A DNA stretch of 64,000 bases from Escherichia coli (GTDB lineage: Bacteria; Pseudomonadota; Gammaproteobacteria; Enterobacterales; Enterobacteriaceae), in NCBI RefSeq assembly GCF_965641715.1, contig NZ_OZ282453.1; one strand, given 5' to 3'. The notes under the pieces are model-generated. The model searched no databases. It had not been told where the DNA came from and worked only from the letters and a program-made list of their open reading frames with translations. Shown in pieces: positions 2,148 through 17,239 of the stretch. Position numbers and translations under genes: made by a program. Position 1 is the first letter of the stretch, and each line of letters starts with the position of its first letter.

Positions 2148-2744
2148 TCAAACCTCTTCTCTTTTTAATTTTTCGTTTATGAGATTATTTCTTTCCCATA
2201 ATCCGGCAAAACGAGCAGCATTACTGGCGGTATAACGTACAGTATGGCGAATATTTCGATGCCCGAGATAATCCTGAATTAAACGAGTATCTGCACCACG
2301 CTCCGCCAGTTCATAACCGCAAGCATGCCTTAACATATGAGGATGAGTCTGCGTTACGGTTCCAGCTTCAATACCGGCATCGCGAATAATGCGATAGGCC
2401 TGCTGGCGAGAAAGCCGACTCCCGCGGCGAGAAATAAATATAGCGTCGGTCCGGTCAGCGCCTTTCCAGTTAGCACGTTCCTGGGTCCAGCGTTCCACAG
2501 CTTCACGCTCATCAAAACGTAACGGGTGAACGGTAGAAAATCCGTTCTTCAGTCGGCGAATATTTATTCGACCTTCATTAAGGTCAAGATCCTGATAATG
2601 CAGATCAAGTAGTTCACTAATACGCATCCCATGCCGATATGCCAACAGAATAAGGCAATAATCTCTGGCTCCCGTTGCCCCGTAACAAACCGCCTGCATC
2701 ATGGCCTGAACTTCTTTACCGGTAAGATAACGACGTTTACTCAC
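2148..2744 (-). CDS. fimE: Tyrosine recombinase FimE (fim switch ON-to-OFF recombinase)
   Basis: 198 aa, MSKRRYLTGKEVQAMMQAVCYGATGARDYCLILLAYRHGMRISELLDL..., with the HxxR...Y recombinase C-terminus (LGHRNIRHTVRYT). Confidence 0.95.
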   Translation of the reverse strand: MSKRRYLTGKEVQAMMQAVCYGATGARDYCLILLAYRHGMRISELLDLHYQDLDLNEGRINIRRLKNGFSTVHPLRFDEREAVERWTQERANWKGADRTDAIFISRRGSRLSRQQAYRIIRDAGIEAGTVTQTHPHMLRHACGYELAERGADTRLIQDYLGHRNIRHTVRYTASNAARFAGLWERNNLINEKLKREEV

Positions 2745-3221
2745 AATAGTAGTACTCCTAACTGAGATATATTTGAATGAATACCTATAGGAAACCTCAA
2801 TCGGTCAAAATTAGCCCAATAGATAAAAAGATAACCACACACGAAGTGATATGGCTATCAGTCAATTACATTAAATATCATACAAAAATAAAATATCACT
2901 GATGTGATAACATCTATTTTCATTGATTTGATTCAATATAACAATAGATTGCAGTGGATTAACTTCCAGTTGCTTAAAAAATAAAGAAAAAAGTGCAGAA
3001 ACAGGAGAATTTAAGTGATGTGTAAATTTATGAATGATTTTGTTTATTTATTTTGAAGAACATAAACCATTGTATTTTGTGTGGATATGGTTAACTTAAT
3101 GTTTATTATGAAAATTAATAATCACACTTACAATAACATCAATTAATAAATGGTTAATCATTTTTGATATATCGTAAGAATAATGTAGTTTTTAACACCA
3201 TCCCTGGTATCTCAACTATCT

Positions 3222-3824
3222 CTATAAAACAGCGTGACGCTGTCGTCCTCTGGCTCTATCCCAGATGCCGTAAAAACGCCCTGCATTGCTGGCGGTATAC
3301 CAGACAGTATGACGAATATTGCGATGCCCAAGATAATCCTGGATAAGTCGCGTATCTATTCCCATATTCGCCAAAGCAAAACCACACGAATGGCGTAACA
3401 TGTGCGGATGAATCTCCAGTGACAACCCGGCATTACCACCGGAAGTCGAGATAATATGGTAAAACTGTTGCCGAGAAAGCGGATTTCCCTTACGTGATAA
3501 AAATACCCACTCGCTCTCAGCATGCGGGTACGAAGTACGGATACTCAACCAGTTTTTTAAAGCCTGAACTTCTTTGTTCAATAGCGGATGCGTTGTTGAA
3601 AAGCCTTTTTTTAATCGATGGATATATATACACTTTGCCTTAAGATCAATATCCGAAATCCTCAATCGACAAATTTCACTCGCCCGGAAACCATGAATAA
3701 AACAAAGCAAAGTCAGACAATAATTACGTGCTGCATGAGGCCCGGTATTTGCTGCTTTAAGGAGTGATTCGATTTCACTATGGGTCAGGAAGTTCCTTTT
3801 TTTGTTATCAGCCTTATTCTTCAT
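3222..3824 (-). CDS. fimB: Tyrosine recombinase FimB (bidirectional fim switch recombinase; 200 aa from the ATG at 3824)
   Basis: MKNKADNKKRNFLTHSEIESLLKAANTGPHAARNYCLTLLCFIHGFRASEICRL...; paralogue of FimE upstream of it. Confidence 0.95.
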   Translation of the reverse strand: MKNKADNKKRNFLTHSEIESLLKAANTGPHAARNYCLTLLCFIHGFRASEICRLRISDIDLKAKCIYIHRLKKGFSTTHPLLNKEVQALKNWLSIRTSYPHAESEWVFLSRKGNPLSRQQFYHIISTSGGNAGLSLEIHPHMLRHSCGFALANMGIDTRLIQDYLGHRNIRHTVWYTASNAGRFYGIWDRARGRQRHAVL

Positions 3825-4834
3825 CGTTTTTCCCTTATAATTACAGACGCGCACTAGCTGTGCTGGGTTAGCAATAATCCAACATTTTTATCCTGATTAT
3901 GTTTATAAAAGCGAACGTTTGCTTAATAACTAACGTAAGTGGACCAGTTCTTCTGAGTGAACTTAAATGGAGTAGCAACAGTTAATTATAATAACGTTGC
4001 CATACAAACGCTATGCTCTTGCATGCTATGTACCTTTATATATTTATCAATCGGATACGAATCTAATAATAACCCTCATCATTAATGCAACTAATCTTAT
4101 CTATATATCATGTGATATGTTCTGTAACAAGTAAAATCAACATAAAAAATTCAGCAAAATTTAATATTCGTTCAACTAGCCGTCTCACATATGACATTAT
4201 TAGTCAACTCCATTTGCCACAAAATGGCTATTTCATGGAACGCAGTAATTTCTTAGTGGCTATTATCATGCTAATTCTTAGGTCCCTAGCGATTATTCCT
4301 GGCTGGTTCGTCAGTTTAGGCCATGAGATTGTTACATTCCTTTTTATCATGGAGATATGGGGGAAAGCAGGAAACGATTTTTTCATCTACATTCGTTGGT
4401 AAATATAGCTTTGGTCACTACGACTTAAACCTTCCTCAATCACAGGTATTCGCCGGGCGATACGGCAAACAAACTAAGTGAAACATCATCCTGAAAACAC
4501 CAACATCAACAAGCCTCTCCAGATCGACTTCAGAAGTGACCAGTTACAAGCCACAAACCAGGAAACATATTTCATGATGAGAATTATGCTCAGCCTGATG
4601 GCGGGTAAACACTGATTTTCACCAAGCTCACTGAGTTAGCTTGCAAAGCTTTCCTTGTTTAGACTCTAAATAAATTATTTATAAAACAAATAGTTAAACG
4701 AAGATCTTTAGTTTTTGAAGACCACCGCAAGTGTTCGTCTGGCTTCACATGGCATCTTCCTCTTAGAAAAAGATCGACATATTTTGTGACACGAATTGCA
4801 AATCTGGTTTTGTTGTATGGATTGCGTGATTTTT

Positions 4835-4858
4835 GATCTGGTATAACAGGTATAAAGG
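4835..4858. promoter_or_regulatory. NanR-type operator (GGTATA hexamer repeats) with an adjacent Dam GATC site in the fimB-nanC intergenic region
   Basis: GATCTGGTATAACAGGTATAAAGG: GATC followed by two GGTATA repeats and a partial third; NanR is known to act on fimB and nanC from this region. Confidence 0.55.
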
Positions 4859-5278
4859 TGAACCACGATAGACAATGAGACAGGGCATCTCGCAATCTAT
4901 GGCAAACATCACTTCAGTTCTTTCTCATCGGGTGATGAAAACGCACTTCAGTCTGAAAGGAATATGAAAATGAGATCAACAGACACTCTATTTTATGACT
5001 CTGGGTAAAATGAATTGAGTAAGTGATCTAGCTTACGAACATTCAAATCAATTAAACATCAGAATAGATTTTATACTCAAGTATTTAATCTGGCTCTCTG
5101 TTTATTTAAATAATGTGGAAAGAGATTTTTCACAGGAGACATTATACAAAAAATATAAAATACAGCTATCGGTTGCCAAAGACACTATAAGCCTGGCAAA
5201 AAATATTACACAACATAAATGCTAATTGTTTATGCGGGCTTTGTATTGCTTTCTGTATCCTACAAATGAGTGAAATTT

Positions 5279-5995
5279 ATGAAAAAGGCTAAAATACTTT
5301 CTGGCGTATTATTACTGTGCTTTTCGTCACCATTAATTTCTCAGGCTGCAACACTTGACGTACGTGGTGGATATCGTAGTGGAAGCCACGCCTATGAGAC
5401 TCGACTCAAAGTCAGTGAGGGATGGCAAAATGGATGGTGGGCAAGCATGGAAAGTAATACCTGGAATACCATTCATGATAATAAAAAGGAAAATGCCGCA
5501 CTCAATGATGTTCAGGTTGAAGTTAATTACGCAATTAAACTTGATGATCAATGGACGGTGCGCCCGGGAATGTTAACGCATTTTAGCAGCAACGGCACAC
5601 GCTACGGACCCTACGTAAAACTGTCCTGGGACGCGACAAAAGATCTTAATTTTGGCATTCGCTATCGTTACGACTGGAAAGCTTACCGACAACAAGACTT
5701 ATCCGGTGATATGTCTCGTGATAACGTTCATCGTTGGGATGGATATGTCACTTACCATATTAATAGTGATTTCACCTTCGCATGGCAAACGACGCTATAC
5801 AGCAAACAGAACGATTATCGCTATGCAAACCATAAGAAATGGGCGACGGAAAATGCATTTGTTCTACAATACCATATGACGCCCGATATTACGCCATACA
5901 TAGAATATGACTACCTGGACCGTCAGGGTGTTTACAACGGCAGAGATAATTTATCGGAAAACAGTTATCGCATTGGTGTGTCATTTAAACTGTAG
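5279..5995 (+). CDS. nanC: N-acetylneuraminic acid outer-membrane channel NanC (238 aa from the ATG at 5279)
   Basis: MKKAKILSGVLLLCFSSPLISQA signal peptide, C-terminal ...YRIGVSFKL beta-barrel signature; divergent from fimB. Confidence 0.9.
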   Translation: MKKAKILSGVLLLCFSSPLISQAATLDVRGGYRSGSHAYETRLKVSEGWQNGWWASMESNTWNTIHDNKKENAALNDVQVEVNYAIKLDDQWTVRPGMLTHFSSNGTRYGPYVKLSWDATKDLNFGIRYRYDWKAYRQQDLSGDMSRDNVHRWDGYVTYHINSDFTFAWQTTLYSKQNDYRYANHKKWATENAFVLQYHMTPDITPYIEYDYLDRQGVYNGRDNLSENSYRIGVSFKL

Positions 5996-6014
5996 TAGAC
6001 AGGAGACAGTCACA

Positions 6015-7121
6015 ATGAATAAAACAATAACGGCGCTTGCTATCATGATGGCTTCATTTGCCGCAAACGCGTCTGTATTACCGGAAACTCCTGTGCCATT
6101 TAAAAGTGGTACCGGAGCAATTGATAACGACACTGTCTACATTGGTTTAGGTAGCGCAGGTACGGCATGGTACAAGCTGGAGACACAGGCCAAAGATAAA
6201 AAATGGACAGCGTTAGCTTCATTCCCTGGCGGACCAAGAGATCAAGCAACCTCGGCATTTATTGATGGTGATCTGTATGTGTTTGGCGGCATTGGCAAAA
6301 ATAGCAAGGGCTTGACTCAGGTATTTAATGACGTACACAAATACAACCCCAAAACCAATAGTTGGGTTAAATTGATGTCGCACGCACCGATGGGCATGGC
6401 GGGTCATGTGACTTTTGTACACAACGGCAAGGCTTATGTTACTGGCGGTGTTAACCAGAATATCTTCAATGGCTATTTTGAAGATCTCAACGAGGCTGGA
6501 AAAGATTCAGCCGCTATAGATAAAATCAACGCTCACTATTTTGACAAAAAAGCAGAAGATTATTTCTTCAATAAGTTTCTGTTGTCTTTTGATCCCTCAA
6601 CCCAGCAATGGAGTTACGCTGGCGAATCTCCCTGGTACGGAACGGCTGGTGCGGCGGTTGTGAATAAAGGTGATAAAACCTGGCTTATTAATGGCGAAGC
6701 CAAACCCGGATTGCGAACGGATGCCGTATTTGAACTTGATTTCACCGGTAATAATTTAAAATGGAATAAGCTTGCTCCCGTCTCATCACCAGATGGCGTC
6801 GCTGGCGGTTTTGCGGGGATAAGCAATGATTCTCTTATATTTGCCGGAGGGGCCGGATTCAAAGGTTCACGAGAAAATTACCAGAACGGTAAGAACTATG
6901 CGCATGAAGGCCTGAAAAAATCATATAGCACTGATATTCATCTTTGGCATAACGGGAAATGGGATAAATCGGGTGAATTATCGCAAGGTCGGGCCTACGG
7001 AGTATCATTGCCCTGGAATAATAGTCTATTGATTATTGGCGGTGAATCTGCAGGCGGCAAAGCGGTGACGGATTCAGTTTTGATCTCTGTGAAGGATAAT
7101 AAAGTTACAGTACAAAACTAA
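6015..7121 (+). CDS. nanM: N-acetylneuraminate mutarotase NanM (Kelch-repeat periplasmic protein)
   Basis: MNKTITALAIMMASFAANA signal peptide, repeated GG/Kelch motifs; AGGAGA ribosome-binding site before the ATG at 6015; the ORF-track start at 5907 is an extension into nanC. Confidence 0.9.
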   Translation: MNKTITALAIMMASFAANASVLPETPVPFKSGTGAIDNDTVYIGLGSAGTAWYKLETQAKDKKWTALASFPGGPRDQATSAFIDGDLYVFGGIGKNSKGLTQVFNDVHKYNPKTNSWVKLMSHAPMGMAGHVTFVHNGKAYVTGGVNQNIFNGYFEDLNEAGKDSAAIDKINAHYFDKKAEDYFFNKFLLSFDPSTQQWSYAGESPWYGTAGAAVVNKGDKTWLINGEAKPGLRTDAVFELDFTGNNLKWNKLAPVSSPDGVAGGFAGISNDSLIFAGGAGFKGSRENYQNGKNYAHEGLKKSYSTDIHLWHNGKWDKSGELSQGRAYGVSLPWNNSLLIIGGESAGGKAVTDSVLISVKDNKVTVQN

Positions 7122-7185
7122 CGCTTCAGGGCCCCAGTAAAGGGGCCCTGCTATCAATTTGTCATTTCAATTACGCGAAATTTAT

Positions 7186-8166
7186 ATGAACGCAATAATA
7201 TCGCCTGATTATTACTATGTTCTTACTGTTGCTGGTCAGTCTAATGCCATGGCGTATGGCGAAGGACTGCCATTACCGGACAGGGAAGATGCGCCTCATC
7301 CCAGAATTAAACAATTAGCGAGATTTGCGCATACGCATCCCGGAGGCCCGTCATGTCACTTTAACGACATTATTCCACTGACTCACTGCCCACACGATGT
7401 TCAGGATATGCAGGGTTATCACCATCCTCTGGCAACGAATCATCAAACACAGTACGGCACCGTTGGCCAGGCACTGCATATTGCACGGAAATTACTGCCC
7501 TTCATTCCTGATAATGCAGGGGTTCTCATCGTTCCATGTTGCCGTGGCGGATCGGCTTTTACCGCGGGCAGCGAGGGGACATATTCAGAACGGCACGGAG
7601 CCAGCCATGATGCTTGTCGTTGGGGAACGGATACTCCGCTGTACCAGGATTTAGTCAGCAGAACGCGAGCCGCACTGGCAAAAAATCCGCAGAACAAATT
7701 CCTCGGCGTATGCTGGATGCAAGGCGAATTTGACTTAATGACCAGTGACTACGCGTCACACCCTCAACACTTTAATCATATGGTTGAAGCCTTTCGTAGG
7801 GATCTAAAACAATACCATTCTCAGCTGAATAATATTACTGACGCGCCGTGGTTTTGCGGCGATACCACCTGGTACTGGAAAGAAAATTTCCCTCATGCGT
7901 ATGAAGCTATTTATGGCAATTATCAAAATAATGTTTTAGCTAATATTATTTTCGTCGACTTCCAGCAACAAGGTGCAAGAGGGCTAACGAACGCGCCTGA
8001 TGAAGATCCGGACGATTTAAGCACGGGATATTACGGTTCAGCGTACCGGTCACCGGAGAACTGGACGACGGCACTGCGAAGCAGTCATTTCAGCTCAGCA
8101 GCCCGTCGGGGGATTATTTCTGACAGGTTTGTAGAAGCAATTTTGCAGTTTTGGCGCGAAAGGTGA
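7186..8166 (+). CDS. nanS: 9-O-acetyl-N-acetylneuraminate esterase NanS
   Basis: MNAIISPDYYYVLTVAGQSNAMAYGEGLPLPD... (SGNH-type GQSN motif); third gene of nanCMS; a hairpin at 7128-7149 separates it from nanM. Confidence 0.9.
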   Translation: MNAIISPDYYYVLTVAGQSNAMAYGEGLPLPDREDAPHPRIKQLARFAHTHPGGPSCHFNDIIPLTHCPHDVQDMQGYHHPLATNHQTQYGTVGQALHIARKLLPFIPDNAGVLIVPCCRGGSAFTAGSEGTYSERHGASHDACRWGTDTPLYQDLVSRTRAALAKNPQNKFLGVCWMQGEFDLMTSDYASHPQHFNHMVEAFRRDLKQYHSQLNNITDAPWFCGDTTWYWKENFPHAYEAIYGNYQNNVLANIIFVDFQQQGARGLTNAPDEDPDDLSTGYYGSAYRSPENWTTALRSSHFSSAARRGIISDRFVEAILQFWRER

Positions 8167-8173
8167 GCGTTCA

Positions 8174-8824
8174 TTAATTTGATTTATTCGCATCCATCAG
8201 CGCTTTTAACTCCTCCGGCGTAAACGGTGGTTTGCGTCGGTGCAACATCGCATGGCAATTAGGGCACACAGGAAGTAAATCATTAACTGGATCCAGCTGG
8301 TAATCCTCTTTAATGGCTGAAAGCGGCACCAGGTGATGCATATGGATAAAACCCTCAGCGATATCGCCATAGATCTTCACCAGATCAACGCCGCATACGT
8401 TGCACTGGCATCCGTGATGTTCGACTGCTTTCTCGCGAGCTTTTTTATCGCGTTCATAGCGGTTTACCGTCACCTTTATCGCCGCACCTTCAACGTAGGT
8501 CCCCTGCGACGGCAACTCATCCGGGAACAGAACATCGGCTATGGGAGCCGCAGCGGCTTTATCCTGATGAATATGAAATCCCTGATCTATAAGTAGCTTG
8601 ACGCATTTAGATTTTATTCCGCCGGTGAAATCCGCAGGGGTAAATTGCGTCCCCGTCATCAATGTCGCTGCGATGCCAGCAATCGCCTTCGAGGGGTAAC
8701 GTCGGCCATGATATTCAATCTCATACAACCGCGCAGGCTGGAACTGATGAGTTTCTCCCGCATCCCATAAATGGATAGCTTCGATGATATACCGCCGCGG
8801 AAGATGGTCGGGAAGTTTATTCAT
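8174..8824 (-). CDS. HNH endonuclease-domain protein (216 aa) with an uncharacterised N-terminal domain
   Basis: C-terminal His-Me finger: HHGCQCNVCGVDLVKIYGDIAEGFIHMHHLVPLS...NDLLPVCPNCHAMLHRR; convergent with nanS, 8 bp apart. Confidence 0.6.
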   Translation of the reverse strand: MNKLPDHLPRRYIIEAIHLWDAGETHQFQPARLYEIEYHGRRYPSKAIAGIAATLMTGTQFTPADFTGGIKSKCVKLLIDQGFHIHQDKAAAAPIADVLFPDELPSQGTYVEGAAIKVTVNRYERDKKAREKAVEHHGCQCNVCGVDLVKIYGDIAEGFIHMHHLVPLSAIKEDYQLDPVNDLLPVCPNCHAMLHRRKPPFTPEELKALMDANKSN

Positions 8825-10301: not shown

Positions 10302-12533
10302 TTAGTTCTCAACCATCAATCGGGAAAGTTTGGCAAAAATCGAACTCTTACTACTTTCGCCACTCCTGAGCATATCCAGGGTGAAGCTATTGAGGTAAGC
10401 ACCAGTTAACGGGTGGTTAAATACATCTACGGCCTTACCTTGGGCGTCCCATATCAGCAGATTTTCTACCAGGTTAGGCCGTGCAATAGTAGGATTTGTA
10501 GGCTGAGCATCGCTTACCAGAACAAACACTCCATTCACATGCGGTTGCAGGTAAATATGGTGATGCTTCATCTTTTGAGTTTTGGTCAACGAGTCGTATT
10601 TCGAGCGGCCCGGTGATATCAGATAGGGCAGTACGTTTTGCTCCAATTTTGCTGAGCGGGTGATGGTATAGCCGTTAAATTTATCACCTTTACGCTCCGC
10701 CAGCGCTTTTTCTTGTTCCTGATAAGCATATGAATCGACGATATTAAATTGCGCTGGGCCAATCAGGCGCGGCACGCGGGAGCTGTTATAGGTGGTAAGC
10801 AGCACATCTGCTGTGTGGTCGTAGAGATAGAAGCTTTTATCGAATAATTTCTTTAGTCGTCCCAGAGCTGGATGATCAACAGATAGATACTCGAATTCAC
10901 CTTCAGCGATCCCGGTATCAACCACCCTAAGTTGGCCGCGCTCTATTTTTAGTTCAACATATCCAAGCAGGGAGAGATAGCTTTTTGTTTTGCGTACTGA
11001 ATAGGCGGTATAGTGCCCATCCGCCAATTCTGGCAGTGGTATGTTATGTTGATTGAGTAAGCTCTCTTTGAACCATAGTTCAGTTTTTGTTCGGCGTACC
11101 TTACTTTTCAATAAGGTAACTGCTGACTTGAGACGACTGTGTGGTTTCGTCAGTTCGATTTCGTATTGTGCAGGGTTGCTTACCAATTGTTCATTAATAA
11201 AATCAATCGCATCCAGCAACTTACGATCAATATTCATTCCTTGTAAAACCACAGGCACCGGTTGCTGATTTAGCCACCCTTGCAAACGATCTAGCTTAAG
11301 CTGGGTATAGGTATCCCAGTTGAGTTCAGGCTGTTTTCGGGCGTCGTCAAAGGCTGCATAGAAATCATTGTACTCAACAGATTCATTCTCTTGCTGCCGG
11401 ATGCTGTTGCTTCGTTCTTCCTCTACCGCATTGAGTACCAGAATAGATGTATTGGCAGGCAGCTCAGCAAATCCGGTTTGTCGGGAATGCTTAAGCGATG
11501 CAAGAGGCCAGAGTTGATACCCAGGGAACTGGTTGGCTAATGCATCAAAGAAATAAGCTTCTTGCGTGACGCTGAATTCGACGCCGTTATTAACCACCAA
11601 CAGCGTATTAGCCAGCTGTTGATCGAGGTCGGTAGCAAACTGATTGACCTCGTGTGTAGCCTGAAATGGGATAGGTTGATGGGGGATCTCTAGTTCACTG
11701 AGGCGCTCGCTGGCAGCATTCATGACCACGTTATAGGTATAGACCTGGCATTCGCCATAGCCGCTGCGCTCACGAAAAAAATCCAGTTTGCTATCACGGG
11801 CATCAAGTTTGCGCCGAGCTTTAAGCCGACGATTATCGATGTTAAACCACACGCTGGTATCATCCAGGGATAGGTGCATCTCATCCGCCGGTTCGACCAG
11901 GAATTTTCGTTTGTGCAAGGTAAAAGCGAGTTCATTATATTCTGAGGCATAAATGTCGAGCTCAAAGGCTTCCATCACCCCGATGCCTTTTTTTTGTGTG
12001 ACGGGCTGACTCAGACGAGCGTTAAGGTAAAGCGTTGAGTTGAAGTAAGTCGGCGATACCGAAAAGCGCTCACTGGCTTTTTCCAGCATTACCATTTTCA
12101 AATGCAGGCTAAATAATCCCTGAATCAGGCGAGATAGGTCATGATTTTCAGCGGTGAGTTGCTGACAAAGCGTTTCAATACGTTCTGCCAACGTCCTATG
12201 AGCCTGACTGTTCGGGTTAGTTGCAGGCGCCAGGAAAAAAAAGACGTGATGGTAATTTGGTAAGCAATGCAGTTCATATTTTACCTCCTGCCCGGCCTCC
12301 AGCCCAAGCTTCTGCCGCACGCAAGATTTTACCTCCTGATGAATTCGCGCATAGTAATCAGCGGATTTTTCTTTTCGCTCTTTAGTAAAGCGCTGAACCA
12401 TAAAGTCTATCGTATAGATATTAGATACAGGGGCCAATAGACGCTGGATGGTCGTCAGCTGATCTTCTTCAAGCTTGATCAAATTGGTTCGGGCAATCGG
12501 AGCATCCGTCAGTTCATTCAAATTAGGGATCAT
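10302..12533 (-). CDS. Uncharacterised 743-aa protein, downstream partner of the helicase-like gene
   Basis: Long ORF whose ATG overlaps the stop of the upstream gene (ATGA at 12530-12533); no nucleotide-binding or methyltransferase motif recognised by eye. Confidence 0.7.
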   Translation of the reverse strand: MIPNLNELTDAPIARTNLIKLEEDQLTTIQRLLAPVSNIYTIDFMVQRFTKERKEKSADYYARIHQEVKSCVRQKLGLEAGQEVKYELHCLPNYHHVFFFLAPATNPNSQAHRTLAERIETLCQQLTAENHDLSRLIQGLFSLHLKMVMLEKASERFSVSPTYFNSTLYLNARLSQPVTQKKGIGVMEAFELDIYASEYNELAFTLHKRKFLVEPADEMHLSLDDTSVWFNIDNRRLKARRKLDARDSKLDFFRERSGYGECQVYTYNVVMNAASERLSELEIPHQPIPFQATHEVNQFATDLDQQLANTLLVVNNGVEFSVTQEAYFFDALANQFPGYQLWPLASLKHSRQTGFAELPANTSILVLNAVEEERSNSIRQQENESVEYNDFYAAFDDARKQPELNWDTYTQLKLDRLQGWLNQQPVPVVLQGMNIDRKLLDAIDFINEQLVSNPAQYEIELTKPHSRLKSAVTLLKSKVRRTKTELWFKESLLNQHNIPLPELADGHYTAYSVRKTKSYLSLLGYVELKIERGQLRVVDTGIAEGEFEYLSVDHPALGRLKKLFDKSFYLYDHTADVLLTTYNSSRVPRLIGPAQFNIVDSYAYQEQEKALAERKGDKFNGYTITRSAKLEQNVLPYLISPGRSKYDSLTKTQKMKHHHIYLQPHVNGVFVLVSDAQPTNPTIARPNLVENLLIWDAQGKAVDVFNHPLTGAYLNSFTLDMLRSGESSKSSIFAKLSRLMVEN

Positions 12534-15500
12534 GAGACTTTTCCTTTAGTCGGCAACTTTTCTACACCCAGCAGGGTTAGTAACATTGGGTTAATGTTCA
12601 ATGTCATGCTCAGTTTCGAATTTTCCAGAGCTCGTCCGCTCTCTCGATTTTTGGGCTGATAGTACTGATAGTCGGTTTGCAACAGGTTAAGGTAGTGGAT
12701 CGTGTGATCCACGTTATCTTGCCACATCAGATTATTGGGGTTCTGGCTGTAGGCGACGTTCAGATAGACAAATCGAATGCGTTCGTAACGGCCTGACAGC
12801 ACAGCCTGAAGCTGTTTCTGTCCCTCTGTATCCGCCTTTTGGCTGGTGATATTACGGATCTGGCGAATCTTGTTGTTGCTTTTCTCAAGCGTTTCTTCTG
12901 CCCGCGTTAAATCATCCAACTGCGTCGCCCAGCGTTTAACGTCGATGCAGAGCAGGTCGTTACCCACTTCAATAAAGCGGTCAAAAAACTCATATACTAG
13001 CGGTTCAAGGCGTTCAAACACCTGTTGATCAGAAAGTGGGGTAACGCCATAGCTTTTTAGCACTTTATCGAAGAGATATTCACCGACATTGCCTTTGAGC
13101 AACGGAACTAGCCTGGGGTTGGGTACCCATTTTTTGAATGCCGTTTCCTGGATGTTGTCACATTCACGAATCAACTCGCCGACCAGGTTGCCGGGGGTAA
13201 AATCGACATCGTTTCTATACTGCGGAAAGAGGGTGAGCTCAGGCCGGTACTCTCTTGCGCCGCCAGCGAAATCCGACAGGGCGGAATAATCTCTGTGGAC
13301 AAGTCCATCCGGGCCGCGTTTGTGGCAAAGTAAAATAGTTTGATTGCCCTGATGGCGGTCGATAAACAGGGCGTGGTGGATTGATTGCATTTGCCGATTG
13401 GCGGCATACAAGGAATTAGCCTGAAGTTTTTCCAGCCAACGCATGGGATTGGTAAAGGAGTCAGAATCGCGGAATAAATTACACAATTCGAGATATTCAA
13501 GGTTGCCGGCGCGTACCTGATTTATCCAGTCGGTTTTCAGGACTCGCTTATGAACAGCATCGATGCGGCGACCATTTTCTACGATAGCCTGTTCAAACGC
13601 ATACCGCTGTTCTGCATCTCTAAATGACTGGTTCTGACTCAGCTTTTCGCACTCCTCCATTAGGCGGTGGTTAAGCAAGGACATGCTTTCTGATACTACC
13701 TCGTTACCGCTATCTTCACTGAGAGCGGCGAACTGGAATGCAACATTACGGAACACATCGCGGGGTAAAAAGATTTCTGTTTTCAATAGAGTGTCGCGAC
13801 GCTCGACTCGCCCTACGGCCTGCACGACGACTTTGAATAAGCTCATATCATGTTCGGCCATTAACAGGCGATAGTTTTCGCCGTGGGCGAAATTAACGTT
13901 GAAATCGGCCAGCTTGTGGACGGTAATATCGTCATCAGCGTAGTGTTTAAGCACGGTAACGTAGTTAGGTAATGTATTAAGATTGCCGCTGTTGTCCTTT
14001 ACTTCGCTGTAAAACGAGGAGTTGATGAGCACTAAGCGCTCAAAATCGACATCCAGACGTGGTGCATTGATATCATTAATATCGCCGTCATGGTATTTCA
14101 CAAAGTAGTTGAGGCCAGTGCCTGCACTTTTGTAGCTGCTCATAAATACCAGTACGGTATTGCTGTTCTTGAGATAGGTTTCTTGCCTAATATCTTCGAC
14201 ATTAGCCAGTGGTGAATCGAAAAAGACCAAATGGACTGTGTGACGCCCTTTGAATGGGGTAAAGGTCAGGATCTGGTCATGTTTCTTATCGTTATCCGTT
14301 TTATCATCGCACCGGGAGTGCATACCGTACTGCTGACGCCAGGCTGATTGATGAGTGCGCCAGGCGCTGATAAAGGCCCGCTTAAATGTCCCTGAAAGGG
14401 ACAAAATCAGGCTGTTTTTACCCTCGTAGGCGGCAAGCAATAACGCTTCAAGCTCCCGCTGGTACTGACGCCGTTTATAGGTATTTTTCAGGTCGTACTC
14501 CAGCGGTTTCTTCAGCGCGTCGAAAAAGTTGTCATACGTCCTGCGATAGATCTCACAATTTTGGTAGATATCGGTCAATTTTAACTGCTTATCATCGAAC
14601 ACCCTGAAGTCGACGTTGCGGATACTGGCTCTCAACGCGCGTAGTGCTCTAAGCGTATCGATATCTGTTTTTTTACGTTCAATGACTCGATAGCCAAGGT
14701 CACGGCTATAGCGCTCCAGGAAGTGACGATTGAAGTTACCGTTTTTGGTGTGGCTAAAACCACTGGTGGCGCTAAATCCAATCACTTTATTGTGCGTGCC
14801 CGTTAATAAACGTAGCAGCATGGCTTCAGGCAACTCTTGTACCAGATCCATCTCAAACGCCAGAATAATTGTACGCTCGGCTCCACTGTTCACGTAATTG
14901 AGTTCAACTATCGGCGTCATCGTGAATACGGTTTTGGGTTGCAGATAAGTGTAGAAATGATCAATCAACAAGTTTTTATCGGTGGTGCGATCGAAGATAT
15001 GTCGCACCACTCCAGCTACATTATTGGCTGCGTCAACAAATTGGCCCAAAGGTGTATTCTGGCTGCTGGAGTTATCCTGGCCACCATTTTTTACCCAGCG
15101 CTTAAAGTGTCGGTTGGTGATATCAGAACAGGCGGCGAGGATGACGGAGACCAATTGGAACAGATCGTGCAGTGTGGGATTGGTGTCGCTGGCATCATTT
15201 TCGACTTCGTAATATAGCTCGGTGCGCGTTATGTCGCCTTCGCTGTTGCGCATACGAATGCGTTTCAGCCCCTCTTCATTAACGTACATTTTGGGGTTAA
15301 AACTGAACACATTCCGGGTAATGGAAATGATGCGTTCGGCGGCGTCGCCGTTAACTTCGAATGCTCCTAACTGGTCGCGAAACATCTCCAGGATCGAGCC
15401 CAGCGTCGTACCGGGTGATAATTCGCACTTTTTCGCCAGTAGGTCTCGAAGGATGGTGATGAATTTGACCATCTCTTGCTCAAAGGTCGTTTGCGCTTCT

Positions 15501-17239
15501 TTGGGCTTTTTCCGGCGCTCCAGGCTGAGTACCGCATTGTGAATACGTCCCGCGACAGAGATAACATGCGCCAGATTATTTTCCTGTGTGATTAGCTTTA
15601 CATGGCATGTTTCTTCAAGACGGGTGTAGGCTTCATGTAGTTCATCAATGATTACCGTAAAGCGAATATTTTTCTGGCGAAAAGGGCAGTCTGGATTACG
15701 TCTGAAGTGTTCATCACGAAGATAAGCAACCTGCCCGGAATGGCCAGCTGCCGCAACGGTGCTGATCTGTGGATCTTTGGGAGCCAGCTTGCCACCAATC
15801 AGCAAGTCGAAACCTACGGACTCAAAATGCACGCCTTCACCTCGCTGACGAGGCGCCAGTCGGTAAGTTGATGTGTCGAACTTATTTGTAGTCATTAATA
15901 GCACCGACGGGCGGTACTGGCAAACTTCGAAAGGCAATACCTGTTTGATAAGCTCGAAGTAGACTTCGTGTACGCTTAGTTCAGACTTGCTTGGTTTTCG
16001 TGCTGTCTCCGCGTGTTGCATTCGCTCTTGGCGCGCCTGGAGCCCGCGACGAATGTACTCTTTAATGGAAGCTTTTTCACTATCTGGTCCAAATAGTAAT
16101 TTACAGGCTGACTCAATCGTATTGCGGATACTATGACGACAGTTTTTTAGCTGCTCTTCAAGAATTTCTCTTTCGTAGTTGTTATCCTGAGAACCGTATG
16201 TTGTCAGCTTTTTTAACTGCTCTTCACAGCGATCAATTTGTGAGACATGGTAATTGAGCGAACGCATTGCGCTGCCAATATATTTGCTACCTTTCGCCCC
16301 TTCGTACCACTGAATATAGCGGTCGCGATTTTTCAGGCCCGTGGCCCAGTCCATAAAGTCGAGATCGGCAATATCCTTACGAGAGAGAACGCAAATGAAT
16401 TCGCCGCCAGAAGCCAGAATTTTATCTTTCTGGCTGCTATCCAGGTCGATTTGTGATTTTTGCGGCGACATGAACAGCAGGTTGGTAAAGCCACCTTCGG
16501 GAAACAGATCATCTGACTTTTGTTTTTTGGCGAAACACTCCAGATATTCGACATACCCTTGAATTACGCCATAACTTTTGCCAAACCCCGTGCCATCGGA
16601 ACTGAAGATGACCTCCGCGCCATCACGTTCATGCACGTGGTAAAGTTGAGAAACTTGGGCGCGGCAAGCGTTAATATCTTCAACCAGCGTTATGTCAGGA
16701 ATTTGCCTGGAGATGAGATCTTGCAGATTATTATTGATAGTTATCTCTCCCACACGCTCACACTCACGGTAACTATTGATGGTTATTTGGCTGCTTTCGA
16801 GCAGAATCTTTTCCACTTGCATGGGAGCAAGATGCAAGGCTGTTGCAATTTCATTGATAGTATCTGATAGAGGTTCGTGTGGATTGCTAATCGTGAAGTG
16901 GTTTAGTACTGCTGCAACGGTATCTGGATGCAATGCTTTTCTGAGAGTGGGGAAGGTGAGGCTGTAATCGTATAGCGCCAAATCATTGTTTATCAGACAG
17001 CGAAACAGCTGTTTAGTGGGATCGCCTCCAGGACGGCTGGCAAATCCCAGGATTTTTGCCTGTTCGAGTCGATACAACAATGCTGCAGCATCGCGATCAG
17101 GTGAGTCAAATGCATCGTGAAGCTGCTGGCTAAATGGCATTGTGGCATTCAGCCGGTTATGGCTGACCAACGCGGAAAAGTGCTGACGTACCAAGGTAAG
17201 CAGCTTACAATCTTCCTTTATAGTCCAGTTTTTTCTCAT
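12530..17239 (-). CDS. Large SF2-helicase-like NTPase (about 1570 aa from the ATG at 17239; the ORF track begins at a GTG at 17275)
   Basis: Walker A DGTGFGKSYG, DExH-like Walker B VIIDELHEAY, motif III-like GFSATSGF, motif V-like SSYKSAGTGLNYF, motif VI-like QAVGRVERR, then about 400 aa of C-terminal sequence without recognisable motifs; GGGGAAG ribosome-binding site before the ATG at 17239. Confidence 0.7.
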   Translation of the reverse strand: MRKNWTIKEDCKLLTLVRQHFSALVSHNRLNATMPFSQQLHDAFDSPDRDAAALLYRLEQAKILGFASRPGGDPTKQLFRCLINNDLALYDYSLTFPTLRKALHPDTVAAVLNHFTISNPHEPLSDTINEIATALHLAPMQVEKILLESSQITINSYRECERVGEITINNNLQDLISRQIPDITLVEDINACRAQVSQLYHVHERDGAEVIFSSDGTGFGKSYGVIQGYVEYLECFAKKQKSDDLFPEGGFTNLLFMSPQKSQIDLDSSQKDKILASGGEFICVLSRKDIADLDFMDWATGLKNRDRYIQWYEGAKGSKYIGSAMRSLNYHVSQIDRCEEQLKKLTTYGSQDNNYEREILEEQLKNCRHSIRNTIESACKLLFGPDSEKASIKEYIRRGLQARQERMQHAETARKPSKSELSVHEVYFELIKQVLPFEVCQYRPSVLLMTTNKFDTSTYRLAPRQRGEGVHFESVGFDLLIGGKLAPKDPQISTVAAAGHSGQVAYLRDEHFRRNPDCPFRQKNIRFTVIIDELHEAYTRLEETCHVKLITQENNLAHVISVAGRIHNAVLSLERRKKPKEAQTTFEQEMVKFITILRDLLAKKCELSPGTTLGSILEMFRDQLGAFEVNGDAAERIISITRNVFSFNPKMYVNEEGLKRIRMRNSEGDITRTELYYEVENDASDTNPTLHDLFQLVSVILAACSDITNRHFKRWVKNGGQDNSSSQNTPLGQFVDAANNVAGVVRHIFDRTTDKNLLIDHFYTYLQPKTVFTMTPIVELNYVNSGAERTIILAFEMDLVQELPEAMLLRLLTGTHNKVIGFSATSGFSHTKNGNFNRHFLERYSRDLGYRVIERKKTDIDTLRALRALRASIRNVDFRVFDDKQLKLTDIYQNCEIYRRTYDNFFDALKKPLEYDLKNTYKRRQYQRELEALLLAAYEGKNSLILSLSGTFKRAFISAWRTHQSAWRQQYGMHSRCDDKTDNDKKHDQILTFTPFKGRHTVHLVFFDSPLANVEDIRQETYLKNSNTVLVFMSSYKSAGTGLNYFVKYHDGDINDINAPRLDVDFERLVLINSSFYSEVKDNSGNLNTLPNYVTVLKHYADDDITVHKLADFNVNFAHGENYRLLMAEHDMSLFKVVVQAVGRVERRDTLLKTEIFLPRDVFRNVAFQFAALSEDSGNEVVSESMSLLNHRLMEECEKLSQNQSFRDAEQRYAFEQAIVENGRRIDAVHKRVLKTDWINQVRAGNLEYLELCNLFRDSDSFTNPMRWLEKLQANSLYAANRQMQSIHHALFIDRHQGNQTILLCHKRGPDGLVHRDYSALSDFAGGAREYRPELTLFPQYRNDVDFTPGNLVGELIRECDNIQETAFKKWVPNPRLVPLLKGNVGEYLFDKVLKSYGVTPLSDQQVFERLEPLVYEFFDRFIEVGNDLLCIDVKRWATQLDDLTRAEETLEKSNNKIRQIRNITSQKADTEGQKQLQAVLSGRYERIRFVYLNVAYSQNPNNLMWQDNVDHTIHYLNLLQTDYQYYQPKNRESGRALENSKLSMTLNINPMLLTLLGVEKLPTKGKVS

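Follow-up and report, generated by a model that had tools for sequence, protein, structure and literature searches.

A site-by-site map of the fimB-nanC intergenic control region in an Escherichia coli strain

What does the long A+T-rich stretch between the divergent genes fimB and nanC hold in this Escherichia coli strain, and is any part of it coding? We analysed the locus within a window of 64 kb, which is the whole stretch of DNA available to us. The fimB-nanC spacer occupies positions 3825-5278 and is 1454 bp long, its K-12 counterpart being 1455 bp. Its G+C content is 35.7% as compared to 46.5% across the whole window, and a value as low or lower was seen in 20 of the 626 windows of equal size. 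The initial annotation had described an AT-rich region of about 1.45 kb at this place, and these figures bear it out.

The left boundary is set by the coding sequence of fimB, the type 1 fimbria switch recombinase (3222-3824, minus strand; NCBIfam PRK09870, 2.5e-138). Positions 1-200 of the PRK09870 invertase profile align to residues 11-210 of the open reading frame 3222-3854, and fimB is annotated at matching coordinates in the collinear strain A30. The right boundary is the coding sequence of nanC, a sialic-acid outer-membrane channel (5279-5995, plus strand; Pfam KdgM, 1.2e-28), with nanC annotated at the equivalent coding sequence in both A30 and K-12. It is followed by nanM (NCBIfam match, 1.7e-181) and nanS (match to the SASA esterase domain). 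The genes for the regulators themselves, nanR and nagC, are absent from the window, and an Rfam search of 2700-6100 at a permissive threshold gave no match.

The spacer is 97.8% identical to that of K-12, from which it differs by 32 changes, 29 of them substitutions and the other 3 single-base indels. They include a C to A change at 4861 and an A to C change at 5028, the latter creating an additional GATC. Of the 5426 complete E. coli genomes in the collection, 5020 contain the bulk of the spacer, and none has the exact haplotype of the window. For comparison of individual sites we used a panel of 14 diverse E. coli strains including K-12, together with A30 and a divergent Escherichia allele, E69. 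A search of the complete-genome collection for deeper alleles returned full-length matches no lower than approximately 94.7% identity, and the sole deeply divergent comparison is therefore the single E69-type allele, taken from the species collection. This allele is 78.7% identical to the window over the whole alignment; its locus is 1084 bp long and stops short of the fimB promoter.

Taken together with the sites described below, these data identify the region, with a probability of about 93%, as the E. coli fimB-nanC intergenic control region, a regulatory spacer shared by the genes on both sides. No evidence contradicting this identification was met. The flanking genes and their orientation are those of the K-12 nanC-fimB region characterized by the Blomfield and Plumbridge laboratories, for which the operators ONR, ONC1 and ONC2, an IHF site and the operators OSA1/OSA2 have been described. 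K-12 and the window have identical sequences for the core of the NanR operator and for the two NagC and two SlyA operators, and the spacings of 212 bp and 57 bp between these elements are equal. The alignment to K-12 proposed in the initial annotation thus finds the NanR operator core and both NagC sites identical to the characterized sequence.

The sequence GATCTGGTATAACAGGTATAAAGG, which the initial annotation had reported, is present exactly at 4835-4858 with zero mismatches and reads the same in K-12. No other match occurs in the 64 kb when up to 3 mismatches are tolerated, and none was found in 100 shuffles. The motif GGTATA-N2-3-GGTATA likewise occurs once in the window, at 4840-4854, with an expectation of 0.01. 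Read against the repeat architecture published for NanR operators (PMC8012715, PMC3658417), the operator spans 4840-4862 and consists of GGTATA at 4840-4845, the spacer aca, a second GGTATA at 4849-4854, the spacer aa and a degenerate GGTGAA at 4857-4862. A single GGTATA repeat is poorly bound by NanR and at least two repeats are needed, according to work on how the NanR-(GGTATA) complex functions (PMC8012715); two perfect repeats are present here as GGTATA-aca-GGTATA. Three perfect repeats, as at nanA, were not found, the third repeat being degenerate in the window, in K-12 and in E69. It reads GGTGCA in K-12 and 13 other E. coli strains, GGTACA in E69 and GGTGAA in the window only, which makes the C to A change at 4861 private to the window. 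Judged by sequence, a degenerate third repeat is a general trait of the nanC operator and is not peculiar to the window.

Loss of the operator on alignment, named in the initial annotation as an outcome that would speak against it, was not seen, since the operator is kept in K-12, in all 14 E. coli strains and in E69. The NanR operator together with its GATC is constant across the 14 strains except for one spacer base in one strain, and the operator core with the GATC is identical in the E69 allele. The operator is located upstream of nanC-nanM-nanS, i.e. the sialic-acid operon, and in genomic SELEX experiments NanR bound the nanC/fimB spacer (PMC4797297, PMC5934670).

A Dam site (GATC, 4835-4838) lies 1 bp from the first NanR repeat, as the initial annotation had claimed, and is invariant in the 14 E. 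coli strains, A30 and E69. This is in agreement with an earlier study in which every NanR site was found to have a GATC within 5 bp, the K-12 GATC site changed its methylation with growth phase, and mutation of dam lowered nanC expression 3- to 5-fold at 72 h (PMC5155068). GATCT and GGTATA stand in the same register at the nanX operator, as they do in 49 of 90 enterobacterial operators. A second GATC (4772-4775) lies 2 bp from the NagC operator ONC1 and is replaced by TATC in 3 of the 14 strains and in E69. A GATC within a few base pairs of the regulator site, as expected for a Dam-sensitive operator, is thus present at both 4835-4838 and 4772-4775, and the two operators would on this sequence criterion be candidates for such sensitivity.

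Comparison with the other NanR operators places the site in a wider family. The nanATEK-yhcH operator is (GGTATA)3 and binds three NanR dimers; its 20-nt core GGTATAACAGGTATAAAGGT and its GATCT prefix are identical to the window. However, the third repeat of the E. coli nanA operator is a perfect GGTATA as compared to GGTGAA in the window and GGTGCA in K-12 nanC, and the nanA operator is located 39 nt before the start codon, whereas the operator in the window is 420 nt before nanC. By analogy with K-12, the nanC operator would also differ from that of nanA in acting at long range on fimB. The nanXY (yjhBC) locus, which is absent from the window, shares approximately 53-65 bp around the operator and a weaker similarity over a leader of approximately 190 nt, and both nanXY and nanC have a gap of approximately 300 nt ahead of the coding sequence. 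In contrast, nanXY has other downstream genes, no adjacent fimB and no NagC pair that we could see. One locus considered as a nanX context (L096) was rejected, since it turned out to be a divergent nanC-fimB spacer.

Both NagC operator sequences listed for fimB in FITBAR Table 1 (PMC3098098) match exactly in the window. ONC2, published as 'fimB2', is found at 4566-4588 (CATAATTCTCATCATGAAATATG on the fimB strand) and ONC1, published as 'fimB1', at 4778-4800 (TGCAATTCGTGTCACAAAATATG on the fimB strand). Both are A/T-rich sites of 23 bp and nearly palindromic. A NagC matrix built from 8 non-fim sites only was used to score approximately 64,000 positions, and it ranked ONC2 first (19.3 bits) and ONC1 sixth (11.5 bits) in the 64 kb. 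ONC1 is identical in all 14 E. coli strains and A30 and conserved at 22 of 23 positions in E69, while ONC2 is conserved at 21 of 23 positions in E69. Counted from start to start, ONC2 and ONC1 lie 212 bp apart in 15 of 16 sequences, a distance that Sohanpal et al. in 2007 reportedly gave for the NagC operators, and the spacing from ONC1 to the NanR operator is 57 bp in all 16. Two other candidates were discarded: an A+T-rich site at 4678-4700 was considered as ONC1 and rejected because the published sequences put ONC1 at 4778-4800, and an inverted match to ONC2 at 4069-4085 fell outside the top 15 matches of the NagC matrix and was set aside as chance.

Polymorphism in the region is highest in the spacer of approximately 120 bp between the two NagC operators (4600-4724), where 35 columns per 100 bp vary among the 14 strains. 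The NagC-NagC length is nonetheless kept at 212 bp in the divergent allele despite indels, which compensate each other. Within this spacer an A+T-rich near-palindrome at 4667-4696 is a candidate IHF region, on the strength of its palindromic form and of matches to the consensus WATCAANNNNTTR, each with 1 mismatch, at 4669-4681, 4671-4683 and 4684-4696, all within a highly polymorphic stretch. Position 4683 lies halfway between the centres of the two NagC sites, and IHF is said, in the 2007 work of Sohanpal et al., to bind midway between the NagC operators. We found no published description of this polymorphic and length-held spacer; it could suggest that the NagC-IHF loop, and with it fimbrial switching, is tuned differently from lineage to lineage, an idea that we hold with little confidence.

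In the NagC loops formed by two operators at nagE-nagB, glmU and chb, two 23-bp sites act together (PMC5401889). The NagC sites of fimB resemble them in scoring well with a matrix derived from other operons. Unlike at nagE-nagB, glmU and chb, NagC at fimB activates, and does so from sites hundreds of base pairs ahead of the promoter.

Closer to fimB, the SlyA operator OSA1 (TTAGCATGATAA, 4263-4274, minus strand) is an exact match, unique in the window, to the sequence published in PMC3173223, and overlaps the H-NS site H-NS2. OSA2 (CTAGGGACCTAA, 4278-4289, minus strand), read in the sequence following the same study, adjoins H-NS3 with a 1-bp overlap and lies 3 bp upstream of OSA1, the gap being as published (PMC3173223). 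OSA2 has been placed at -194 to -183 of the fimB start, with OSA1 and OSA2 together spanning -194 to -167 (PMC3173223), and since OSA2 falls at 4278-4289 the fimB +1 is expected near 4095. Coordinate arithmetic from this K-12 site gives a putative 5' untranslated leader of approximately 271 nt from +1 to the ATG (3825-4095, minus strand). At the corresponding distance we read a probable fimB sigma-70 promoter at 4102-4130 on the minus strand, with a -35 element TTGTTA (4125-4130), a 17-bp spacer and a -10 element TATATA (4102-4107). A single column is variable between 4075 and 4174 in the 14 strains. A scan for consensus promoters and terminators returned fewer promoter-like sites than shuffled sequences and none at the NanR operator or the fimB promoter; the promoter assignment rests on the published coordinates because the scan did not report it.

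NanR and NagC have been reported to activate fimB, independently of SlyA, from operators approximately 470-760 bp upstream of its promoter (PMC3173223). The claim of the initial annotation that both proteins bind far upstream of fimB agrees with this literature and with the exact presence of the published NagC sites. It may be argued instead that the NanR/NagC cluster is a local module for repression of nanCMS, and that any effect on fimB in this strain is absent or indirect, for example through divergent transcription or supercoiling from nanC. The cluster is approximately 745 bp from the fimB start and yet beside nanC. The module recurs at nanX, and many Enterobacterales carry its core at nanA, with no fim gene nearby; moreover, the third NanR repeat carries a private change in the window. 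Strains differ in how far ONC2 lies from the fimB promoter (465 to 477 bp), which indicates that strict helical phasing to fimB is not maintained. However, ONC2 is located 212 bp further from nanC, towards fimB, and its sequence and spacing are kept even in the divergent allele, a conservation and position that are hard to explain by repression of nanC alone. Sohanpal et al. reportedly found in 2007 that the DNA upstream of the NanR site, towards nanC, is dispensable for fimB activation, which also counts against a purely local role. In K-12 genetics, NanR, NagC and their inducers alter FimB-LacZ expression (PMC3173223). We therefore consider a local module very unlikely and retain the reading of a control region shared by fimB and nanC.

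The presence, sequence, spacing and conservation of the sites are direct observations, and experiments in K-12 suggest how they would be bound and used for regulation in this strain. In the absence of sialic acid, NanR would occupy the GGTATA-repeat operator at 4840-4862 and repress the adjacent nanCMS promoter, with NagC occupying ONC1 (4778-4800) beside it. The same bound NanR, together with NagC at ONC1 and ONC2, would increase transcription of fimB from a promoter approximately 470-760 bp away, the two NagC sites, held 212 bp apart, being probably looped with the help of IHF. SlyA, bound at 4263-4289, would independently counter H-NS silencing of the A+T-rich DNA. Sialic acid would release NanR and GlcNAc-6-P would release NagC; fimB expression would then fall, and with it the FimB-driven OFF-to-ON switching of type 1 fimbriae, while nanCMS would be induced. 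As GATC sites flank both the NanR and the NagC operators, protein occupancy and Dam methylation may compete at these sites.

A similar arrangement is known from the pap operon, where a GATC directly beside the site of the regulator Lrp allows occupancy to block methylation (PMC5155068, PMC11316696). Unlike at pap, phase variation here proceeds via inversion of fimS by FimB and FimE and not via methylation, and fimB-nanC is not known to carry a heritable ON/OFF pattern of methylation.

Two open reading frames predicted within the spacer raise the question of whether the region is wholly non-coding. The first encodes 105 amino acids (4085-4402, plus strand) and covers the SlyA/H-NS sites as well as the fimB promoter; the second encodes 78 amino acids from a TTG start (4659-4895, minus strand) and lies antisense over the NanR and NagC operators. 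Were one or both of them real protein-coding genes, the spacer would not be free of coding sequence. Both are open in the window, and the first is at the upper edge of chance length, a frame of at least 105 aa arising in 5% of dinucleotide shuffles. None of the 14 strains has an interruption in its first 72-73 codons, and its SNPs tend to fall on third codon positions (8:7:17). Yet this frame is disrupted in 9 of the 14 strains (a frameshift in K-12, truncation by a stop at codon 74 in two strains and, in six more, a C-terminus shifted out of frame), and it lacks a Shine-Dalgarno ribosome-binding site. In 11 of the 14 strains, K-12 included, the second frame is cut short by a stop at codon 8; its SNPs show no bias by codon position (15:13:15), and a frame as long as 78 aa arises in 30% of shuffles.

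Neither frame matches NCBIfam or Pfam. Neither is annotated in NC_000913.3, A30 or the other RefSeq records inspected, the exception among the approximately 120 matches listed being one 'hypothetical protein' in TOE17. Both frames overlie experimentally mapped regulatory sites, which accounts for the conservation of the DNA beneath them. A coding role for either is thus extremely improbable; 4085-4402 and 4659-4895 are mechanical reading frames and not genes, as the initial annotation had suspected, and they should come out of the annotation.

The most conserved non-coding block of the spacer, at 4773-4859, comprises ONC1, a 34-bp spacer, the GATC and two NanR repeats, and is identical to E69 at 86 of 87 positions. 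Approximately 53-65 bp of it are common to the nanX (yjhB) promoter-operator, and it presumably holds the nanC promoter. A transcription start for nanC could neither be located from the sequence nor found in the open literature. A second conserved block at 4927-4981 (plus strand), identical to E69 at 52 of 55 positions, lies at a constant offset of 128 bp from the operator in 16 sequences, is partly homologous to the nanX leader and is presumed to belong to the leader of nanC.

This second block is joined by an upstream open reading frame of 14 codons (MKMRSTDTLFYDSG, 4964-5008, plus strand), a candidate only, with an AAGGA at 4957-4961, which is 8 nt ahead of the second ATG of the frame. All 14 E. 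coli strains keep the frame open and end it at the same stop after the same number of codons, and manual reading of the alignment shows 14 open codons in E69 as well; A30 and the window do not differ across 4964-5008. Its start GAAAATGAG has a homologue in the nanX leader, and the frame is unannotated in NC_000913.3. It is conceivable that the nanC leader holds an unrecognised post-transcriptional element, in which this frame of 12-14 codons within the 55-nt block would tune nanCMS. However, changes in the frame are mostly non-synonymous (3 of 4 within E. coli and 4 of 5 against E69) and therefore give no evidence of selection on the peptide, and the homologous nanX frame has 43 codons of unrelated sequence. 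Folding of the presumed leader (4860-5290) is no better than that of shuffled sequences (z = 0.31), and the Rfam search gave no match here. Moreover, the block is only presumed to be leader and may just as well contain DNA sites bound by CRP, OmpR or CpxR, all three of which reportedly activate nanC according to Condemine et al. in 2005. We consider such an element unlikely. We found no published description of the 55-nt block and its 14-codon frame among the known operators, and that they could control nanCMS after transcription start is, like the tuning of the NagC-IHF loop, a doubtful proposal.

The region as a whole is already known and explained, and with the published NagC and SlyA operators and the NanR operator core intact it adds no new biology. 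The value of the present analysis is a clean site-by-site map in the coordinates of the window, together with small leads, namely the polymorphic NagC spacer, the leader frame and the private change in the third NanR repeat. Type 1 fimbriae are a major adhesin in colonisation of the urinary tract and gut, and this region ties their production to host sugars, sialic acid and GlcNAc, that are released by inflammation. Since every mapped site is intact, the strain most likely keeps this sugar-sensing circuit.

The initial annotation described the DNA between the divergent fimB and nanC genes as about 1.45 kb of AT-rich, non-coding sequence, and this is borne out by a length of 1454 bp (3825-5278), a G+C content of 35.7% as compared to 46.5% in the window (within the lowest 20 of 626 windows of equal size) and profile matches of the flanking genes. 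The fimB product aligns with the entire FimB-type tyrosine DNA invertase profile (2.5e-138); its true start is residue 11 of the mechanical ORF, which gives a coding sequence of 3222-3824 on the minus strand. The right edge of the spacer is set by nanC, which belongs by family match to the KdgM-family porin genes and starts at 5279 on the plus strand; it is followed by nanM (sialate epimerase profile, 1.7e-181) and by a SASA-domain esterase gene at the nanS position (7159-8166, plus strand). The most similar complete E. coli genome, A30 (99.2% identity over 25 kb), is annotated at the equivalent coordinates with fimB, nanC, nanM and a truncated sialate O-acetylesterase pseudogene. The ORF at the nanS position is open in the window (335 aa, TTG start, SASA esterase domain), whereas a truncated pseudogene is annotated there in A30 and also in one K-12 record.

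Alignment with the fimB-nanC spacer of K-12 MG1655 runs end to end at 97.8% identity with the operator retained, and the differences are ordinary polymorphism only. The bulk of the spacer is found in 5020 of the 5426 complete E. coli genomes. No feature is annotated between nanC and fimB in the curated K-12 reference record, and among approximately 120 RefSeq matches listed, the features lying under the match are limited to transposases of IS elements and a single 'hypothetical protein'. In other strains insertion sequences have repeatedly targeted the spacer: an IS5-family element lies within it in JMF1 (L004), an IS1 abuts window position ~4088 in AJ5 (L003), where fimB and its promoter are missing, and another IS1 occupies the nanC-proximal portion in HN68 (H52).

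Variation was followed in an alignment of the window with K-12 and with 12 further genomes chosen to span identities from 98.6% down to ~95%. The two mechanical ORFs of the spacer, at 4085-4402 (plus) and 4659-4895 (minus), exist as predicted but are not genes, in line with the doubt already expressed about them. The former is frameshifted in K-12 and terminates at codon 74 in two strains, and in six more its C-terminus is shifted; the latter terminates at codon 8 in 11 of the 14 strains, K-12 included, and is open in the window through the single base 4872 only, with polymorphisms spread evenly over its codon positions (15:13:15). Searches of NCBIfam and Pfam gave no match for either, and dinucleotide shuffles of the spacer produce such lengths in 5% (4085-4402) and 30% (4659-4895) of cases. 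Conservation of their DNA is accounted for by the experimentally mapped regulatory DNA which both overlie.

The NanR-type operator proposed beside a GATC site is present exactly where it had been placed: GATCTGGTATAACAGGTATAAAGG occupies 4835-4858, has no second match in 64 kb when up to three mismatches are tolerated and is absent from shuffles, and its core, GGTATA-N2-3-GGTATA, occurs once in the window against 0.01 expected. The operator itself (4840-4862) consists of two GGTATA repeats separated by aca and followed, after aa, by GGTGAA, with the GATC one base ahead. In the 14 aligned E. coli the GATC at 4835 is invariant and the repeats show a single change, in the spacer, in one strain. 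A strict definition of the NanR operator has a perfect third repeat; the third repeat of the window is imperfect, and those of K-12 and of E69, a divergent allele of the fimB-nanC spacer, are likewise degenerate. An imperfect third repeat is a general property of the nanC operator. The GGTATA repeats support cooperative assembly of NanR dimers, whose binding is weakened by Neu5Ac (PMC8012715), the NanR regulon includes nanCMS (PMC3658417), and the nanC/fimB spacer was bound by NanR in genomic SELEX (PMC4797297, PMC5934670). Each NanR site has a GATC no more than 5 bp away, methylation of which varies by growth phase, and a dam mutant at 72 h expresses nanC at a 3- to 5-fold lower level (PMC5155068).

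As compared to 15 comparators, some bases are private to the window, namely 4861 (C>A, by which the degenerate third repeat GGTGCA becomes GGTGAA), 5028 (A>C, adding a GATC at 5025-5028), 5080 and 5169. The 70-nt haplotype at 4826-4895 is found in no complete E. coli genome, the best match being 97.1%. A30, of baboon source, is overall the closest genome; its spacer has 36 differences from the window, suggesting a mosaic ancestry of this region.

Both fimB sites of the published NagC operator table, CATAATTCTCATCATGAAATATG and TGCAATTCGTGTCACAAAATATG (PMC3098098), are found as reverse complements with zero mismatches at 4566-4588 (ONC2) and 4778-4800 (ONC1), 212 bp apart, and also form the top direct repeat of an unprompted repeat finder. 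A weight matrix built from the 8 non-fim sites of the same table, to avoid circularity, ranked ONC2 first (19.3 bits) and ONC1 sixth (11.5 bits) over the 64-kb window. Among the 14 aligned E. coli ONC1 is invariant, and ONC2 departs only at its last base in a single strain. The two are spaced 212 bp apart in 15 of the 16 sequences compared, a value that E69 keeps through one deletion and one insertion; the distance from ONC1 to the GATC and operator is 57 bp in all 16. Such fixed spacings are what a NagC-NagC loop of fixed geometry would predict, and NagC usually requires two looped sites (PMC5401889). ONC2 and the fimB promoter, in contrast, are 465 to 477 bp apart depending on the strain, which argues against any need for strict helical phasing with that promoter. 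The most polymorphic part of the spacer lies between the NagC operators (4600-4724); among 14 strains it has 35 variable columns in every 100 bp, and it takes in a GATC at 4703 and IHF-like matches. The IHF consensus matches three times within 4669-4696 with one mismatch each, halfway between the two NagC sites and in this most variable stretch. Sohanpal et al., in 2004 and 2007, are said to have described NagC operators 212 bp apart with IHF bound midway between them.

On the fimB side, the SlyA operators OSA1 (TTAGCATGATAA) and OSA2 (CTAGGGACCTAA, published at -194 to -183; PMC3173223) are located on the minus strand at 4263-4274, by sequence match, and 4278-4289, as read in the sequence. 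The published position of OSA2 thus puts the fimB transcription start at ~4095. A plausible promoter can be read at 4125-4102 (-35 TTGTTA, 17-bp spacer, -10 TATATA), which a simple promoter scan did not report; the core promoter region (4075-4174) has one variable column in the 14 aligned E. coli. Counted from this start, the positions are about -745 to -767 for the NanR operator and about -471 to -493 for ONC2, far upstream of fimB as had been anticipated and in agreement with the published ~760 to 470 bp (PMC3173223). NanR and NagC activate fimB, whose expression is lowered by the inducers Neu5Ac and GlcNAc; their effect is independent of SlyA, which counteracts H-NS (PMC3173223).

Scanning the 20-nt operator core against one genome per bacterial species gave 90 loci, the majority being nanA-type promoters within the Enterobacterales. 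Among the loci is the E69 copy of the spacer, from a separate species representative that bears the label E. coli; it is 78.7% identical to the window over 1028 aligned positions. The block 4773-4859 covers ONC1, 34 bp of spacer, the GATC and both perfect NanR repeats; 86 of its 87 positions are kept in E69, as are 21 of the 23 of ONC2, and conservation ends sharply once the GGT that opens the third repeat is passed. Sohanpal et al. (2004 and 2007) reportedly found that fimB activation does not depend on DNA to the nanC side of the NanR site. The core is identical at nanA-type promoters of many genera (loci L017-L106), including Citrobacter, Enterobacter, Kluyvera, Raoultella, Buttiauxella, Rahnella, Hafnia, Salmonella arizonae and Atlantibacter, and a GATC stands in the same register at 49 of the 90 loci. 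Three operator contigs under unrelated organism names appear to be mislabelled or to stem from enterobacterial contamination: a 'Bacteroides' MAG contig of 3.3 kb with K-12-type nanC operator context (L021), a 265-bp 'Methylobacterium' contig with nanX-type context (L087) and a 'Chryseobacterium sp. 18061' contig near-identical to Citrobacter sp. 18056 (L090).

A consensus promoter scan found no convincing -35/-10 pair for nanC; the operator-proximal DNA resembles the promoter-operators of nanX and nanA, which suggests that the nanC promoter overlaps the operator. With the nanX operon, nanC shares an extended promoter-operator-leader module (window 4795-5050 against 1440-1750 of the nanX upstream locus L002), in which ~53-65 bp around the operator are 90-100% identical and weaker similarity continues ~190 nt downstream, and both operons have ~300 nt ahead of the coding sequence. 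In contrast, nanA (L029/L077) has only the operator and some upstream bases in common with nanC, and its start codon is 39 nt past the operator. Condemine et al. (2005) reportedly found nanC to be activated by CRP, OmpR and CpxR. The presumed nanC leader contains an upstream ORF of 14 codons (4964-5008, plus strand; MKMRSTDTLFYDSG) with AAGGA at 4957-4961. It is open and of equal length in 14 E. coli, without any difference in A30 over this interval, and by our own reading of the alignment it is open with 14 codons in E69 (79% identical), where the surrounding block 4927-4981 keeps 52 of 55 nt. Its substitutions are mainly non-synonymous, and the homologous nanX leader ORF has 43 codons.

Beyond the nan genes, two adjacent large minus-strand ORFs (10302-12533, 743 aa; 12530-17239, 1569 aa) overlap by 4 nt and are annotated merely as hypothetical proteins in A30; Pfam and PADLOC gave no match for them. 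They belong to an island in which an HNH / type IV restriction-like gene (8174-8824) occurs together with integrase remnants and several toxin-antitoxin pairs; this may be a defence or mobile-element module that has yet to be characterised.

The spacer is the K-12-type fimB-nanC control region proper and not a relative of it. The known NanR, NagC and SlyA operators are present, intact, correctly spaced and under visible constraint, and we infer that the strain behaves like K-12.
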